64,000 nt of DNA from Escherichia coli (GCF_003790525.1 NZ_CP033635.1); one strand, 5' to 3'. Positions 5,451 through 37,931 are shown, counted from the stretch's first letter. Numbers and translations are program-made. The notes: generated from the sequence alone by a model not told the origin.

Positions 5451-6206
5451 TTAACGCAAAATCTCACACTGATGATCCTGGATTTCCTCGGCTGAAGCAC
5501 GGTTCAGCGTCAGTAGATTTCGTTGTGTCGCCAGCAATACAAATGAGTTATCACTCTGCCGTACCATTGCCAGCCCGTAGCTTCCCATATGTTCCCGCGC
5601 CTCAGGCACTTCTTCTGCAAGCATCATAAATGGGCTGCGTTGTACCAGTTCGCTTTCCGTTACCCGACGCGCCAGGTACTCATGCCCACGCAAACCACCT
5701 GGCAGTGGCAACCAGCGGCTACTGATGTTCGCCAGATTGTTATCCAGCTGTTCGCGCACATCAGGACGAATACAAGAAATATGAATATGAAAATGGTTTT
5801 GCGTACGCCCGGTGCGAGAGTTGATCGCCAAAGAAACCGCGCGATCGGGAACCGGCTGGCCGTATTTTTTGCTCATAAAATCACGCGCCTGCCAGGCCAA
5901 CCAAAAGAAGTTCGGCGTTGAAGGATCGGTCAACAAAGGACTTTCAGTACCGTTAATACGATACGTTGGCATCAACAGATATTGCAGTGGGCCATTAAGA
6001 TCTTTTAAAACCACGTATCCGGCGTTGGGTTTGACTTCCGCACATGGCGAAGGATTTTGATTTTGCTGCTGATTGGGCAAACATTCCTCAAGGACAATCT
6101 TACGTAATGTATCCGACTCTTCACCGGTTAATTTCCAGTAACCAATACCGGCAGCCACAACGGCGATAACTATCATCACCAAAAAAAGAAGACCCGCTTT
6201 TTTCAT
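5451..6206 (-). CDS. cdh: CDP-diacylglycerol pyrophosphatase
   Basis: 251 aa from [24 protein letters not shown]...; ORF-track start at 6398 is an upstream extension. Confidence 0.85.
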
Positions 6207-6261
6207 CTTTTTTTCCCTGTACCTCAAAGAGATGCAAGGGTAACGCAAAATCGTGACAAAT

Positions 6262-6292
6262 AAAAAACCCGGTCGCGAGAAACCACCGGGTT
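6262..6292 (-). terminator. Rho-independent terminator after sbp
   Basis: Minus-strand hairpin aacccggtggtttctcgcgaccgggtt followed by a T-run. Confidence 0.6.
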
Positions 6293-6312
6293 TGATAATT
6301 ATCCTGGAGAAA

Positions 6313-7302
6313 TCAGCGTTTGCTGATCTGATCGAACGTACCGCCGTTAGCAAAATGCTCTTTTTGCGCTTTCGTCCAGCCGCCGAACTCTTCATCAATG
6401 GTGAATAACTTCAGCTTTGGAAACGCATTTTCGTACTTTTTCGCCACCTCAGCATCGCGCGGACGGTAGTAGTTTTTCGCGGCAATTTCCTGACCTTCTG
6501 GCGAGTAGAGATATTTCAGGTAGGCTTCCGCCACCTCTTTGGTGCCTTTTTTCTCGACCACTTTATCGACCACCGACACGGTTGGCTCTGCGAGGATAGA
6601 CTCACTCGGCGTGACGATTTCGAATTTATCTTTCCCCAGTTCATTCGCTGCCAGCAGAGCTTCGTTTTCCCAGGCGATCAGTACATCGCCAATTCCGCGC
6701 TCGACAAAAGTGTTAGTGGAGCCGCGCGCGCCAGAATCCAGAACTTCGACGTTTTTATACAGTGCCCGAACAAAATCCTGTGCTTTTGCCTGATCGTTGT
6801 TGTTGTGATGCAGCGCGTAGCCCCAGGCAGCCAGGTAGTTCCAGCGCGCGCCACCAGAGCTTTTCGGATTAGGCGTGATCACCGAAACACCCGGTTTAAT
6901 CAGATCGTTCCAGTCATGGATCTGCTTCGGATTGCCCTTACGTACCAGGAAAACAATGGTGGAAGTGTACGGTGCGGAGTTATCCGGCAGACGTTTGATC
7001 CACTCTTTATCAATCCGCCCGCGTTCCGCAATTGCGTCCACGTCATAGGCCAGAGCCAGAGTGACAACATCAGCTTCAATACCATTGATTACCGACGTCG
7101 CTTGTTTGCCTGAACCACCGTGGGACTGACGGATCACCACGTTATCGCCAGTTTGCTGTTTCCAGTGGGCGCTGAATGCCTTGTTGTACTGTTCGTACAA
7201 TTCGCGCGTTGGATCATATGAAACGTTAAGAAGCTGAATATCCTTTGCCATAACGCTGGTTGCCGCCAGCAAAAATGTTAACCCTACGCCCCACTTGTTC
7301 AT
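6313..7302 (-). CDS. sbp: Periplasmic sulfate-binding protein
   Basis: 329 aa with signal peptide ([19 protein letters not shown]). Confidence 0.9.
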
Positions 7303-16754: not shown

Positions 16755-17945
16755 TTAATTGCTGTTAACCGAGGTGACCAGATTTGCCAGGTATTTATCG
16801 GTAATACGCTGGCGCAGGGTCAGGTTTTCAAGAGGAGGCACCGGGGTATAGTCGTAGTCGATATACAGTTTTCCGGCCTTAAGGGTTTCCGCATCGTTGG
16901 ATTCTTCGCTGAACCAGCAGGTCGCATCCACGATATAGCCGTTTGTTTTCAGCTCACGGAATTTGGCATTGATGCCGTCAACGATGTCGCGAATCAGCGT
17001 TGCGGTGATGGGCTTGTCCACCGCCCACATGTGCGCCTCAGCCATCGTGTCGGCCAGCACCTGCGCGGTGCGGGTGTAGTTTTCAAAGAGGAACAGCGGG
17101 TCATCAGAGCAGGTACGGTTACCCCAGAATCGGAAACCGTCGCGGCGAATCAGCGTAGTGACGCCTGACTCGTTAAGCAGGTCAGCATCGGTGCCGGACT
17201 CCTGCAAATCCCAGAATACAGATGCGCTGATGCCGGTAACACCGTTCACCCCGACATTGGACAGCGTTTTATGCCAGCCCTGCTCCTGGTCGATTCTGGC
17301 ACGCAGACCCAGCGCACGGGCGGTGGCATACGCGGTGGCGGTGGTGCTGGTGACCGTATCCCATGCGAGGAAATCCGGCCAGATGACCATCAGCTCACGC
17401 TGGCTGAAATTCTGGCGGTAGGCTTTCACCTCGGAAATGGTTTTACAGCCCCATGCGCTGATATACCCGAAAGCGCGCAGCTTCTGACAGACTGATGCCA
17501 GTGCAACAGCCACCTCTTTGGTATCCAGCCCCGGCACGCCGAGAATACGCGGTTTAACACCGGTTACCGACTCCGCCGCCAGCAGGGCTTTCAGTCCGGT
17601 GTACTGACCGTTTTCGTCGGTGGTGCCGATGATATTGGAAACGGTCTGCGCAAGTTTCGTTTCCTCGTCGTCGCCGGTGCCGTCTTCCACACGCACGACA
17701 ACGGTGACCGGTTTTGACTGGTCGGCGATGGCCTGCAACGATGCCGCCAGCGTGCCTTTTTTACCGGCCTTTGCAATTGCGCTCTGCACATTGGTAATCA
17801 GCACTGGTTTATTGAGGGGGAAGATTTCCGCATCCGCATCGCTGGCCGTGCAGACCATGCCAACAATGGCGGTGGATACGGTGGAAATGACGCGGGTGCC
17901 GTCGTTAATCTCCAGCACCTGCACGCCGTGATGATAGTCACTCAT
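16755..17945 (-). CDS. FI: Contractile tail sheath protein FI
   Basis: 396 aa, MSDYHHGVQVLEINDGTRVISTVSTAIVGMV...; P2 gpFI length. Confidence 0.9.
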   Translation of the reverse strand: MSDYHHGVQVLEINDGTRVISTVSTAIVGMVCTASDADAEIFPLNKPVLITNVQSAIAKAGKKGTLAASLQAIADQSKPVTVVVRVEDGTGDDEETKLAQTVSNIIGTTDENGQYTGLKALLAAESVTGVKPRILGVPGLDTKEVAVALASVCQKLRAFGYISAWGCKTISEVKAYRQNFSQRELMVIWPDFLAWDTVTSTTATAYATARALGLRARIDQEQGWHKTLSNVGVNGVTGISASVFWDLQESGTDADLLNESGVTTLIRRDGFRFWGNRTCSDDPLFLFENYTRTAQVLADTMAEAHMWAVDKPITATLIRDIVDGINAKFRELKTNGYIVDATCWFSEESNDAETLKAGKLYIDYDYTPVPPLENLTLRQRITDKYLANLVTSVNSN

Positions 17946-18264
17946 CCGTTTAACTCCGTGGTTAATGGGTGCAACTATTTTCTGTTGGGCAGTGCATGAG
18001 ACGCTATTTGACCTGGCTGGTCAGTGGATGAAACAACAGATAAAGAAAAGGCAGGCAATTCGCCCGCCTGTCCTGATTTGTACTCACTCATTTTCCGACT
18101 GACAATTTACATAGCCAAAACGCTATCAAATCTGACAGTCTGCTTTGAGCGAGGAGCAGAGGTTAGTTTTAGTTAACCAAAATGATAAAAAGCAGTAGAA
18201 AAATCCGCTCATTACGTTATGGTTATAAGCCGCACATAATCATCCGAGCCAAATCCTCTTGATT

Positions 18265-19164
18265 TCAAAGAATTAGCACTTGCTCTTCACTAGAAACTAT
18301 GGTTCTGACTTCACGCTCAAATATTGGATCCATTATCATTTTTCTATTTGTTGGAATAGTAAATTTACCGAGTACCATGACAATGCTACTCAACGGAAAT
18401 AATTTTGGAGTAACATTTCCTAATTGAATCGTAGGATATATATTAAAGCCCCCTTTTATCCTCATTGGCGAACCTTCAATGAAGTGTCGATAATTAAATT
18501 TCGCCATAGGGATTCTCGCCACATGCACTTTCATAATTACAGCAACCTGAGCTATTTTTACTTTCTGGAGGTAAGTTGACAATCGTTCTAACTGCGTTGT
18601 TTCATAGAAAAAATCAGACCACGTTACAGTACTTGTTCCAGTAACAATTTTTATGCTGTTTCTCTTGTTGGGGTGAGCTTTTCCATATTCATAGATCTCC
18701 CGTAAGCTATCCATGTTCTTCACATAAGGGGCTTTCCGACCTCTCTTGACATAAACGCGGTCTGTAGTATCAGAAGGTGGATTTGCCTGCATAGCTGCAG
18801 CTTTTCTGCTTAATTTAGAGATATCATCTTCATCGAGTATATGTATACGGAATATATTATTACCTGTGGCAAGCGCACGGCTGATATCATGACTGGAATC
18901 ACTTGCATAAATTGTATTCAATCCTGAAGTTCCATACTGGCATAATTTGTCATGCGTGAAATTTTTTTCCAGTCTAAAGAAGGCGGGGATATGCAAGGTT
19001 TTATTAAAACTCCGACGAATATGGCTTTTGACATACACCAAATGAGCAGAGCAATTTGGGTCAGGACATTTGAGTGGATAGGGATTAACACTATAATTAA
19101 AAGTATTTACATTTACTAAAATCTGATTGTTATCAATAGCCTGAGTTATACGAATACCACTCAT
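18265..19164 (-). CDS. Hypothetical protein at the Z/fun variable locus between G and FI (candidate anti-phage cargo)
   Basis: 299 aa ORF with GGAGG 5 nt upstream of the ATG; AT-rich relative to flanking tail genes; no family recognised by eye (contains CPDPNC). Confidence 0.6.
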   Translation of the reverse strand: MSGIRITQAIDNNQILVNVNTFNYSVNPYPLKCPDPNCSAHLVYVKSHIRRSFNKTLHIPAFFRLEKNFTHDKLCQYGTSGLNTIYASDSSHDISRALATGNNIFRIHILDEDDISKLSRKAAAMQANPPSDTTDRVYVKRGRKAPYVKNMDSLREIYEYGKAHPNKRNSIKIVTGTSTVTWSDFFYETTQLERLSTYLQKVKIAQVAVIMKVHVARIPMAKFNYRHFIEGSPMRIKGGFNIYPTIQLGNVTPKLFPLSSIVMVLGKFTIPTNRKMIMDPIFEREVRTIVSSEEQVLIL

Positions 19165-19379
19165 TACTCCTCCATAAAGATAGGCGCAAGCATTTAGTAA
19201 TAAACCATTAACATGCCGAGATCATACCCGATCATTGAAATGTAAACACTCCCCTAAGACGGCTGCTGGCATAATATTTTATGACATCAGCAATGCCCAC
19301 CTCTGGCACAGAGTGGACTGTCAGATTAGGCTTTACTCTGTGCCATAGATATGTAAGCCCACACTAGAGCTCATACAAC

Positions 19380-19907
19380 TTATTGCGGCATTTCCGGCCA
19401 TTCAGGATTTGCAGGATCCACACGACTGACCAGAACACTATAGCGTTCCCATGCCTCCAGTCGACTACGCTCCTCATCTGTTGCCATATTCAGCCTGACC
19501 GCGCGCTCCAGCGGCAAAATCACGGATTCAGCTTCGGAAAGCAAAGCTGCCTTATGTAATTCCGCCAGTTTCTGCTGTTCGTCTGCCGTATAAATCCGCT
19601 TAATCACGGCACCATCCTTAAACATCCATTTACCTGAGTCGTCAGCACGTCGGTTGGAGGTAATATCAGGAACCTCAACAACGCTAAAACCTTCAGGATT
19701 AAGCGTTGAAGCATCTCTGGTGATAGCGACAATAATATTATTTTCATCGTAAACAATCTTTATTGTGTCTGGCTGAAAGTTCTTCACTTCCTCATACCAG
19801 TTTTTTCCGTCCTCAGAGTAAAGCCAGATAACTCCGTGTTTCTTTGTTAACTCATACTGTTCCAGTGTTTTAGCGTTACCCGCTTTTATGTTCTTTAAGT
19901 GCATCAT
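19380..19907 (-). CDS. G: Tail fibre assembly protein G
   Basis: 175 aa, P2 gpG length and position. Confidence 0.85.
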
Positions 19908-34665: not shown

Positions 34666-34892
34666 CGCCCGCTTCATGGGTCGGTTTTGATGCAATTCCA
34701 AAAGCCGTCCAAACTCTCTTAGGCTAAATGTCCAACGAGAAAATAGTTCTTTGAATGTGAATGCATTTTAATGCAGAGTTATGCCCAGCATTTTTGTACA
34801 CTTCGATGTATCAAATGCGCTGCAAACGATCAAATATGGATGTTTTATCAAGCATCCCCCAAAAGATATTTACATCATCCCATGAGGTTAAG

Positions 34893-35966
34893 ATGGATAA
34901 CAAAATCGTAGAAATTGAGACAAATAAGCTTGATTTTGACCCTAAAAACCCACGTTTCTTTCGTCTCAATGATGCCAGTAACGCTGCAACAGTCATTGAG
35001 GAAATGTTAGATGACGAAAGTGTCCACGATCTAATGCTATCAATCGGTCAGCAAGGTTACTTTCCTGGAGAACCTTTATTGGCAGTAAAAAGCAATGGAA
35101 ACTACATCGTGGTTGAGGGAAACAGACGCTTAGCTGCTGTAAAGTTGCTCAATGGAGATCTGCTTCCTCCAAAAAGAAAACTTAAAGGTGTGCAAGAAAT
35201 CATTGATGATACTACCAATAAACCTAAGAAGCTTCCCTGCATCATTTATGAAAACCGAGAGGATGTACTGAGATATATCGGTTATCGTCATATAACTGGG
35301 GTCAAAGAATGGGACTCATTATCTAAAGCCAAATACCTTAAAGAGTTATGTGATACTTTTTATTCACATGAGCCTAAAGAGATAGTATTAAAAAATCTGG
35401 CTCGTGAGATTGGGAGTAAACCACATTATGTTGCAACACTTCTCACTGCACTGAACTTATATGAAGTCGCGCATGACCATGAGTTTTTTAATTTACCCAT
35501 GAAGGCTTCTGACGTGGAATTTTCATATATAACCACAGCTTTGGGATATTCAAAAATCACAAACTGGTTAGGTCTACAGGATAAAAAGGATTTTTTAGAC
35601 CCAAATTTAAATGAAGAAAACCTTAAGCGTTTATTCTCTTGGTTTTTTGTGCCTGACCAACAAGGTAGAACCATCATCGGTGAGTCTCGAAGAATAAAAG
35701 ATATTGCAGCAGTGGTTGAGAAACCCGAAGCAATTGAAATTCTCATGAAAAGTTCAAACTTGGATGAAGCATATCTATATACCAGCGGAGAAAGAGAAGC
35801 ATTAGATAAAGCACTAAACGCAGCTAGTGTTAAATTAAGAGTAGTTTGGGATATGCTACTTAAAGCTAAAGAATTAACATTAGAGCATGAAGAGGCTGCA
35901 TCTGAAATTTTTGAGATGTCAAAAAATATTAGAAATCAGATCAGAAGCAAAAGGGAGGATGATTGA
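34893..35966 (+). CDS. ParB/Srx-like N-terminal domain protein (cargo gene 1 at the old/tin position)
   Basis: 357 aa from ATG 34893 (RBS gagg upstream); ParB-box-like motifs LDFDPKNPRF and IVVEGNRRLAAVKLL; AT-rich. Confidence 0.7.
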   Translation: MDNKIVEIETNKLDFDPKNPRFFRLNDASNAATVIEEMLDDESVHDLMLSIGQQGYFPGEPLLAVKSNGNYIVVEGNRRLAAVKLLNGDLLPPKRKLKGVQEIIDDTTNKPKKLPCIIYENREDVLRYIGYRHITGVKEWDSLSKAKYLKELCDTFYSHEPKEIVLKNLAREIGSKPHYVATLLTALNLYEVAHDHEFFNLPMKASDVEFSYITTALGYSKITNWLGLQDKKDFLDPNLNEENLKRLFSWFFVPDQQGRTIIGESRRIKDIAAVVEKPEAIEILMKSSNLDEAYLYTSGEREALDKALNAASVKLRVVWDMLLKAKELTLEHEEAASEIFEMSKNIRNQIRSKREDD

Positions 35967-35970
35967 GATT

Positions 35971-36996
35971 ATGATTACAAATCTTGATTCAATGCCTTCT
36001 AATGAGCCTTATTTATGGGCTGATTATATTGAGATATTGGCCTTAACTAATATCGACAGGTCATTCAGTCGAGGAGACCTATATAGCACACTGCAAGCTC
36101 AACCCGAAGCAGTACTAGCTGAAACAGATGAAGCAGAAGAAGAGGGCGTTTATGATGTTGATGATGAAAATGATACGCCTGTACGCAAGAGAACAAAACG
36201 AAGTGTTAGTCGAGCATATACTGACAGAAAGTGGAGCTATGCGATAGGCTTCATACGACAACGCATTGATTTATTTGGGGATAGTTACCCTTTTACTTTA
36301 TCAGAAGACAACGATACTGTAGAGTTACGTGATATATCAGAAAAGCCACTGGAACATTTAGAAAGACTATATTTAGCTTTACTAATCTGTGCTAACATAA
36401 AATATGTCAACATAATGAGCAGAAGAGAGATAACGCGCAGTTTTGAACTAATTAGTTTACCTATTTTTGAAAGCCTAATGCCTAGCGGTAGCATAATAAA
36501 AGCATGCTGGGCTTCTGGTGGTCAAGCGGCCCCTTACACTGGAACTCTATATAATAAATTTAAGAGTATTGCTTCCGATATCCGTTGCACAGCGAACTTC
36601 AAAGAACGAGATTTCAGTCGAGGAAATAGTGGTGACGGAGGCCTTGACATAATTGCCTGGCATCCAATGGGAGATCAACGAGATGCCATCCCTATTTCTT
36701 TTGTTCAGTGTGGCTGTTCTCAAGAAGAGTGGGAAGCGAAGCAGCTTGAGGCCTCACCTGCGATGCTCTACAGTAAATTCCCCGTAGCTCACCGATGGGC
36801 AACTTATTATTTCTTACCTCAAGATCTACGATGGATAGATGGTGAGTGGGCGCATAAAAATAAGTTAGGCGATGCTATTTTTGTTGATCGCCTAAGATTA
36901 ATCAATTTAACCAGAGCATCTGATAATATTGATCACAGTCAAAATATTAGCTATCTAGATATCATCCTTGATCCTTCCAGCGCGATCGCTGCTTAA
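35971..36996 (+). CDS. Hypothetical protein, possible PD-(D/E)xK-type nuclease (cargo gene 2)
   Basis: 341 aa; starts 4 nt after gene 1 (alternative ATG 35959 overlaps its stop); contains GDGGLDIIAW ... ISFVQCGCSQEEWEAK, resembling an Mrr-type catalytic core but lacking the canonical QCK lysine. Confidence 0.6.
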   Translation: MITNLDSMPSNEPYLWADYIEILALTNIDRSFSRGDLYSTLQAQPEAVLAETDEAEEEGVYDVDDENDTPVRKRTKRSVSRAYTDRKWSYAIGFIRQRIDLFGDSYPFTLSEDNDTVELRDISEKPLEHLERLYLALLICANIKYVNIMSRREITRSFELISLPIFESLMPSGSIIKACWASGGQAAPYTGTLYNKFKSIASDIRCTANFKERDFSRGNSGDGGLDIIAWHPMGDQRDAIPISFVQCGCSQEEWEAKQLEASPAMLYSKFPVAHRWATYYFLPQDLRWIDGEWAHKNKLGDAIFVDRLRLINLTRASDNIDHSQNISYLDIILDPSSAIAA

Positions 36997-37931
36997 TCCC
37001 ATAAATCTGGAAGGTTTCTAGCAACCGCCTCAAACAATGGAGGCGGTACTGCATTACCTACCACAGTATATTTCATATTAATAGAAGCCCGTTCAGTTTC
37101 TGGGAAAATTAAATCCCCAAAACCTTGTAAAATAGCAGCCTCTCGATAGCTAAACCTACGAGCTGGTGCATCCGAAGTAAATTGCCACTTATCAGGTCCC
37201 AATTTTTCTAATGTTGGACTTATTGGATGTAGAGGCATATGTCTAGGATTTGCAACAATTGTTTTAGATATCTGATCCCAATCTTGCCTACGGTTTCGCG
37301 ATAGATAATACCAATGAAAATCGGCGTCATAAAACTCGCCAACAGGCCAAACAGGCATATGCCCAATAGCATCACGAATTGTGGAATATGGTGTCAAACC
37401 ATCACCATGTGTTGGTTTTGGAAATTTGTATGTAATACCGTAGTCCTTTCGTATTCCTACGATAAAGATTCGCTTCCTATCTTGGGATACCCCATAATGG
37501 GACGCATTCAGAATTTGCGAGCTTACTGTATAACCTGCTTCTTCGAAAACTTTGAATTGATCCTTTAATAAATGCTCAAAGTTACGCCTTACCATACCAG
37601 AGACATTCTCTACAATGAATGCTTTTGGCTTAATTTTACTCAAAGCACGGGCAAACTCTAAATATAGTGTATTAATCTTTCTATCTGCCTTCCTTGCCCC
37701 ACCTTGACTAAATCCTTGGCAAGGATAGCATCCGATGAGCAACTCAGCAGAAGGGAACGACTGGAGCCCTGAGATATCGCCCAAAATGTAGTCAGTTTCA
37801 GGATGGTTTTCTAAGTAAACGTCCCTTGCGTAAGGCAAAATATCATTTGCCATAAGCACATTGAAACCTGCGTTCAAAACTCCCGCATCAGAACCACCAC
37901 ATCCAGAAAAAAGTGAAACTACAGTTGGCAT
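36993..37931 (-). CDS. DNA cytosine-5 methyltransferase, HaeIII/HhaI-type small m5C MTase (cargo gene 3)
   Basis: 312 aa with motif I FSGCGG, motif IV PCQGFS, motif VI ENV, motif VIII QDRKR, motif X GNAVPPPL, plus YYLSRNRRQDW resembling the M.HaeIII variable region; convergent with gene 2 (4-bp overlap). Confidence 0.85.
   Translation of the reverse strand: MPTVVSLFSGCGGSDAGVLNAGFNVLMANDILPYARDVYLENHPETDYILGDISGLQSFPSAELLIGCYPCQGFSQGGARKADRKINTLYLEFARALSKIKPKAFIVENVSGMVRRNFEHLLKDQFKVFEEAGYTVSSQILNASHYGVSQDRKRIFIVGIRKDYGITYKFPKPTHGDGLTPYSTIRDAIGHMPVWPVGEFYDADFHWYYLSRNRRQDWDQISKTIVANPRHMPLHPISPTLEKLGPDKWQFTSDAPARRFSYREAAILQGFGDLIFPETERASINMKYTVVGNAVPPPLFEAVARNLPDLWD

Follow-up and report, generated by a model that had tools for sequence, protein, structure and literature searches.

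The space between the tail genes G and FI of a P2-like prophage of Escherichia coli (GCF_003790525.1, NZ_CP033635.1) holds a real and selected gene, orf44, which forms a mobile cassette of one gene at a site already known as a hotspot for cargo and defence, and whose homologues are repeatedly found beside validated defence systems. Its product, gp44, is a basic protein in which the structural model shows a zinc finger and an OB-fold, without a recognisable catalytic site. We read gp44 as a stand-alone anti-phage protein that benefits the lysogen and that would act by binding, not by catalysis, to block replication, a reading to which we give a probability of roughly 0.4. That orf44 is an anti-phage gene of benefit to the lysogen by whatever mechanism has a somewhat better than even chance. 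The stretch of DNA analysed, called here the window, is 64,000 nucleotides long, and positions are counted from its first letter.

Results

The spacer between G and FI

The prophage is P2-like and intact, running from ogr near 11.4 kb to the integrase gene near 44.6 kb of the window, between fieF and cpxP, with its late genes on the minus strand. Gene G (tail fibre assembly; 19380-19907, minus strand), a 175-aa ORF annotated as gpG in Wphi, HQ103 and RefSeq E. coli, is the last gene of the late V operon and the upstream backbone flank of the cargo site. The downstream backbone flank is FI (tail sheath; 16755-17945, minus strand), a 396-aa ORF annotated as gpFI. The spacer between them, 17946-19379, measures 1434 bp, and its only substantial ORF is found at 18265-19164 on the minus strand and encodes 299 aa. 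A ribosome-binding site read from the sequence, GGAGGAG (19173-19167, minus strand), stands 3 nt upstream of its ATG. The GC content is 0.35-0.42 over about 18050-19250, versus 0.55-0.60 in FI, FII and T, and the ORF itself has 37.0% GC. Gene G and the 3' half of H are likewise GC-poor (0.39-0.47), so that the low-GC tract extends beyond the spacer on the G side. The preliminary description, made from the sequence of the window, had proposed an AT-rich spacer with a single ORF at the position of Z/fun in P2, and both points were borne out: ORF, ribosome-binding site and GC drop were all found, and the flanking genes and the alignment with P2 agree on the location.

In coliphage Wphi, whose G-FI region is 99.8-100% identical to the spacer, the ORF carries the annotation orf44/gp44 (AAN28239.1) without a function; Yersinia phage HQ103 and a 'Peduovirus P2' assembly match the spacer just as closely. 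The RefSeq entry, WP_000014361.1, is a hypothetical protein. The ORF is a real gene, judging from its orthologues at 65-88% identity, which are all about 299 aa long. The leader GCCTAT(C/T)TTTA(T/A)GGAGGA is kept in the orthologues of a lambdoid phage and of Serratia. With dN/dS values of 0.11-0.17 between orthologue pairs, gp44 and its orthologues are, on this measure of sequence change, under purifying selection.

Borders of the cargo cassette

The swapped DNA is narrower than the 17946-19379 of the preliminary description. In blastn against P2, homology ends at 19304 on the G side and restarts at 18164 on the FI side, which leaves a cassette without homology to P2 at 18165-19303 (minus strand), in which orf44 is preceded by a 5' leader of 139 nt and followed by a 3' tail of 100 nt. 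Outside the cassette the spacer consists of conserved P2 backbone, with the inverted-repeat arms, the terminator of the V operon and the promoter pF. On the left, the cargo site is bordered by a G-side inverted-repeat element at 19301-19348, a hairpin with 14-nt arms (19301-19314 and 19335-19348) and with the 12-mer GACTGTCAGATT in its loop at 19316-19327. The right border is an FI-side arm at 18129-18153, with the 12-mer AATCTGACAGTC at 18129-18140; it is adjoined by a small hairpin at 18139-18160, within a right-border element of 18129-18160. The complement of AATCTGACAGTC is found at 19316-19327, and the 25-nt arms 18129-18153 and 19303-19327 are 80% complementary.

The same inverted repeat borders unrelated cargo in five other P2-like phages (P24E6b, P2_AC1, P22H4, L-413C and 569R9), whose cargo ORFs encode 181-259 aa and lie on either strand, so that repeats with the 12-mer core AATCTGACAGTC bracket the G-FI cargo in six P2-like phages in all. 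P2 itself differs from the window at the G-side border. In Yersinia phage P37 the Z/fun site is empty (locus L046, 696-830): terminator, pF and FI come directly after G, and FI begins 133 bp past the G stop. The P37 site shows the ancestral or cargo-free state, and it places the insertion of cargo after the stop codon of G and before the V-operon terminator. As in a Z-region cassette, the orf44 segment lies between G and FI, upstream of pF, and is bounded by conserved left and right repeats. The earlier proposal that this is a variable site that carries anti-phage genes agrees with these five phages and with P37, and also with the literature, in which the site is the 'P2 defence hotspot 2', home of PD-T4 and PD-lambda systems (Vassallo 2022, PMC9519451), and is also described as a hotspot by Egorov and Atkinson (2024 preprint) and by Moura de Sousa (2026). 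The work of Rousset (2022) concerned the other P2 hotspot.

In the window this other hotspot (old/tin), between the portal gene Q and the replication gene A, spans 34761-37931 and holds three genes. The first (34761-35966, plus strand) encodes a ParB-N-domain protein with partial PADLOC matches to PD-Lambda-5_A and PDC-M38A, the second (35887-36996, plus strand) is a 369-aa ORF without a match, and the third (36993-37931, minus strand) encodes a C5 cytosine methyltransferase.

Transcription signals

A Rho-independent terminator, AGGCGGGCGAATTGCCTGCCT then TTTCTTTATC, is found at 18040-18069 on the minus strand (18069-18049 plus a T-run) and is kept in P2. This V-operon terminator comes after the cargo and before pF, and in P37, where the site is empty, it stands immediately behind G. 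The P2 features annotated at 17555-17583 and 17626-17628, aligned with the window, place the pF late promoter region at 17970-18039 (minus strand). Mapped from P2 in this way, the Ogr/activator site lies at about 18039-18014 and the transcription start at about 17972-17970.

Inside the cassette and upstream of orf44 there is a putative sigma-70 promoter-like match (TGGGCA-17-TATTAT, 9/12 positions) at 19299-19271 on the minus strand. The region has 10 such matches, versus 4.4 +/- 2.2 in shuffles, and since they are frequent in AT-rich DNA this one is not diagnostic. There is no strong terminator between G and orf44, and from the position of the operon terminator, downstream of orf44, we infer that the gene is reached by read-through from the late V operon. 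Its expression would probably be two-fold, from its own weak putative promoter in the lysogen and by read-through from the V operon. A search of the spacer for an embedded ncRNA gave no credible Rfam match (best E = 0.88). A 13-nt complementarity (92%) joins orf44 codons 17-21 (19102-19114) to the GTGTTTACATTT block of the 5' leader (19238-19250), a block that is conserved at the locus of the 88% lambdoid orthologue. This pairing could form a translational control stem, or it could be due to chance in AT-rich DNA.

Conservation and predicted structure of gp44

Conservation was scored over an alignment of 140 family members. The residues H71 and C75 are conserved in 100% and C33 and C38 in 97% of these sequences, a pattern that predicts a CCHC zinc site with knuckle spacing. 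R106, Y147, W182, F185 and Q295 are conserved at 92% or more, R50, R64 and S90 are conserved as conservative classes, and the N-terminal motif MSGI(K/R)I or MGIKM is conserved in the family. No Asp/Glu/His catalytic constellation or acidic catalytic motif is conserved across the 140 members. An AlphaFold model built with only 12 close sequences was unusable (pLDDT 47.8) and was superseded by the one from the 140-sequence alignment, which reached a pLDDT of 91.9 and a pTM of 0.85.

In this model gp44 has three parts. Residues 1-80 are predicted to be beta-rich and to hold the zinc ligands. Residues 81-203 form alternating beta strands and alpha helices and carry the conserved R106, Y147, W182 and F185; no structural match was found for this alpha/beta middle when it was searched as part of a longer chain. 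Residues 204-299 are modelled as a beta-barrel, a five-stranded closed OB barrel that matches solved OB domains, most strongly the tRNA anticodon-binding domains. The OB domain is the most variable part, with a mean identity of 16% against 23-29% in the N-terminal modules. The pI is 9.8 for gp44 and 10.2 for the predicted OB domain, and the latter value, as the sole and indirect indication, suggests that the domain may bind single-stranded nucleic acid. Known proteins nearest to gp44 include ssDNA binders that combine an OB-fold with a zinc finger (the MCM N-terminal domain, the MCM10 internal domain, RPA70 DBD-C and the BRCA2 OB domains), and the class IIb aaRS anticodon-binding OB is also among the nearest to its OB domain. 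The preliminary description had assigned no motif to the protein; this now needs correction, since the CCHC ligands form an invariant zinc-binding motif and an OB-fold is predicted.

Distribution of the family

A full-length match (HMM E = 1e-217) places gp44 in PHROG 7195, a family without an annotated function. Among complete E. coli genomes orf44 is present in 116 of 5426 (about 2%), in every case on the chromosome and with at least 99% identity, and the carriers include many human clinical isolates. A scan of IMG/VR gave, besides seven copies of 99-100% identity, one orthologue at 88% and one locus that is truncated, and a GTDB genome scan for related loci found none. The close relatives, with 65-88% identity and a length of about 299 aa, are from Enterobacterales. 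When 1.84 billion cluster representatives were searched with a profile, 152 proteins, mostly of 295-330 aa, had E <= 1e-3, and Foldseek against the AlphaFold DB found members in Gamma-, Beta- and Alphaproteobacteria, Firmicutes, Actinobacteria and Bacteroidota, nearly all of them labelled 'uncharacterized'. Two distant members, P0079 and P0080 (448 and 467 aa), have an extra C-terminal region of about 130-150 residues without a Pfam match, the nature of which might reveal an output or partner domain of the family.

Searches of annotated families gave little. Against PADLOC-DB v2.0.0, gp44 had no match at E <= 1 to any family, including the models for PD-T4, PD-lambda and PD-T7, and among ten distant relatives PADLOC v2 gave a single weak, sub-threshold match, to ThsB1, in one relative; gp44 has neither the TIR fold nor the catalytic Glu of a ThsB-like protein. 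It has no match in NCBIfam or Pfam, none of the 140 family members matched a relevant Pfam family, and a PDB sequence search with gp44 and with the 140-sequence profile gave no usable match. The gp44 sequence is not among the entries listed in the tested or validated tables of DefensePredictor, and in the searchable literature neither a function for gp44/orf44 nor a report of an anti-phage effect was found.

Genomic settings of the homologues

The 88% orthologue (IMGVR_UViG_3300007747_000136, 5700-7010) is located in the nin region of a lambdoid phage, flanked on one side by O/P, a methyltransferase gene and an HNH gene, and by Q on the opposite side. About 100 nt of 5' and of 3' flank are shared by this locus and the window, and an insert of about 100 nt interrupts the leader of the orthologue. 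An orthologue with conserved flanks in a lambdoid phage points to an exchange of the cassette between unrelated phage types.

Several other relatives were found near defence genes. The 74% orthologue, from Serratia fonticola, is in an integrase-bounded island beside a type I HsdR gene. The 71% orthologue, from Morganella, is at the end of a prophage at icd and has a complete retron I-B (RT_I-B, 3e-91; ATPase-Toprim_I-B, 2e-225) about 1 kb away. In a 186/P2-like prophage a 32% homologue comes just after the integrase gene, and an NsnA/PD-T4-2_A-like gene lies two genes away. Near umuDC, a 39% homologue stands immediately behind an AbiTii gene, and a 20% homologue is part of a guaA-adjacent island with TIR, Schlafen/AlbA, SymE, Fic and HamA. 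Altogether, in at least five independent contexts of mobile elements, counted in a small sample, an orf44 homologue was found one to three genes away from a member of a validated defence family. Another distant homologue adjoins a relaxase gene on a conjugative element (L010), and two distant contexts (L028 and L033) had no defence genes among the neighbours. In Morganella morganii (L036-L038, 7977-11370) the retron I-B lies between the integrase gene and the orf44 orthologue at the icd-proximal prophage end, which makes two cargo units in one int-att hotspot. A conserved partner gene was sought and rejected, as the upstream and downstream neighbours are not homologous across the contexts; since they are never homologous to one another, orf44 is a stand-alone single-gene unit.

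The same fieF/cpxP prophage is present in a heavily decayed state in E. coli WCHEC020031 (NZ_CP033401.1, 3297669-3313283). There FI (tail sheath), baseplate gene V, the portal gene and A (replication endonuclease) are truncated, and orf44 and the cargo of the other hotspot, the trio described above, are intact. A truncated-sheath annotation is seen in 17 of the 25 best E. coli matches.

Discussion

The Z/fun swap-site has been described before, both with its inverted repeats and as a defence hotspot of P2. Inverted repeats to the left and right are annotated in the 'proviral Z-region' entries for P2-like prophages of the ECOR strains (Nilsson et al., GenBank AJ512676-AJ512685; seen in AJ512683), so this feature of the window is not new. 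The ECOR cassettes have the same insertion site and the same inverted repeats as the one described here, and they too carry single AT-rich ORFs, called 'putative lysogenic proteins'. Their cargo proteins are, however, unrelated to gp44, as are those of the systems of Vassallo (2022). What is new is the description of this cargo, by which a 'hypothetical' gene of Wphi is placed in a wide unannotated family.

According to our preferred reading the island would be a mobile single-gene cargo cassette (a moron) held in the inverted-repeat-bounded swap-site. Its product would bind a nucleic acid specific to infection, most plausibly ssDNA or a replication or recombination intermediate, or alternatively a complex of such DNA with a phage protein, and this binding, without catalysis, would stop the replication of the superinfecting phage. 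The conserved surface of zinc site, arginines and aromatic residues would grip the nucleic acid, and the variable OB-fold would set the specificity for the target. The nearest analogy, one of function, may be P2 Tin, a single-gene prophage protein which blocks T-even replication via the phage ssDNA-binding protein. Tin could thus be a model for a non-enzymatic, prophage-encoded replication block that needs only one gene. Tin is located in the other P2 hotspot, and as a homologue of gp44 it was rejected (hhalign probability 0.1%).

In other mobile elements homologues often have known defence genes as neighbors, and on this ground orf44 is a candidate anti-phage gene. Its position in the P2 hotspot, its mobility as a single gene, the purifying selection and its preservation in the decayed fieF/cpxP prophage were also counted in favor of this role; nevertheless, all E. 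coli copies are at least 99% identical, and the retention in the decayed prophage could therefore reflect clonal spread. Other observations were counted against it: gp44 has no recognisable effector domain, purely binding-based defence proteins are to our knowledge uncommon, two contexts have no defence genes, and the neighborhood of a relaxase is also typical of anti-defence genes. The preliminary description had suggested a distinct single-gene defence protein. The genomic associations and the stand-alone architecture fit this suggestion, but no defence database recognises gp44, and for this reason the defence role remains that of a candidate. It is doubtful that gp44 is the founder of a multi-phylum, stand-alone immune family (about 150 clusters at 50% identity) without a catalytic domain, whose conserved zinc-finger and alpha/beta module and quickly diversifying OB-fold would recognise and neutralise phage nucleic acid or its SSB complex by binding alone; in that case a one-gene cassette would be carried between P2-like, lambdoid and integrative elements.

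A protein that is defensive could also be cryptically enzymatic or toxic. The conserved N-terminal 200 residues would then make up an effector, such as a divergent metal-independent RNase or DNase, that stays inactive until the variable OB-fold detects phage nucleic acid or SSB, and the result would be abortive infection. A conserved N-terminal module joined to a variable C-terminal one is the usual arrangement of effector plus sensor, the conserved Arg, Tyr, Ser and Gln could serve a metal-independent nuclease, and the match of the OB domain to tRNA anticodon-binding domains is consistent with this idea. Moreover, one relative in the AlphaFold DB carries the submitter label 'CoiA-like'. CoiA combines a zinc finger with a nuclease, and we take the Cys-x4-Cys ... 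aromatic-Arg-Leu ... His-x3-Cys pattern of gp44 to resemble the CxxC...HFxH...C motif of CoiA_N. This resemblance is a lead only: none of the 140 family members matches the CoiA Pfam families at E <= 0.1, and the PD-(D/E)xK catalytic residues are not conserved in the gp44 family. An enzymatic effector seems unlikely.

The position of orf44 on the late-gene strand, upstream of the V-operon terminator, means that it could serve the lytic cycle of the phage itself, and read-through from G, with no strong terminator in between, would suit a late-expressed nucleic-acid-binding accessory or anti-defence factor. Such a protein might shield phage DNA ends or ssDNA, or counter a host nuclease or a retron, and the distant homologue next to a relaxase gene is in keeping with it. 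However, viable phages have the site empty or filled with unrelated genes, so that orf44 is dispensable for growth. The gene is also intact in a prophage that is decayed and non-inducible, and homologues occur in chromosomal islands without phage genes. A benefit to the phage is rather improbable.

We give a similarly low chance to gp44 being a DNA-binding regulator or nucleoid-associated protein of lysogenic conversion, or the product of a cassette without benefit that persists by mobility alone. A basic protein with a zinc finger and without an effector domain would be expected of a regulator, and the two contexts without neighboring defence genes would agree with either version. Against both stand the defence families found one to three genes away in at least five independent mobile-element contexts, and the strong purifying selection argues against a functionless cassette.

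The Z/fun homologue that had been offered as the other option, that is, a relative of the T5-exclusion gene product Fun(Z) (NP_046777.1) blocking T5, is refuted at the sequence level. Fun(Z), which in P2 blocks T5 and confers FUdR sensitivity, is also encoded by a single non-essential cargo gene in the G-FI spacer next to the pF region, but only the locus and the AT-richness speak for a kinship with orf44: the best BLASTP match to gp44 has E = 3.6 over 31 residues, the proteins have 528 and 299 aa, and fun is antisense to the late genes whereas orf44 is on their strand.

The gp44 family is now described by a confident structural model, with a predicted zinc module and OB-fold, and by a short list of invariant residues, and it is placed in at least five different defence-rich cargo sites. 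If gp44 is protective, it would add a defence family missed by PADLOC v2, Pfam and NCBIfam, and it could exemplify an immunity that works without an enzymatic effector.
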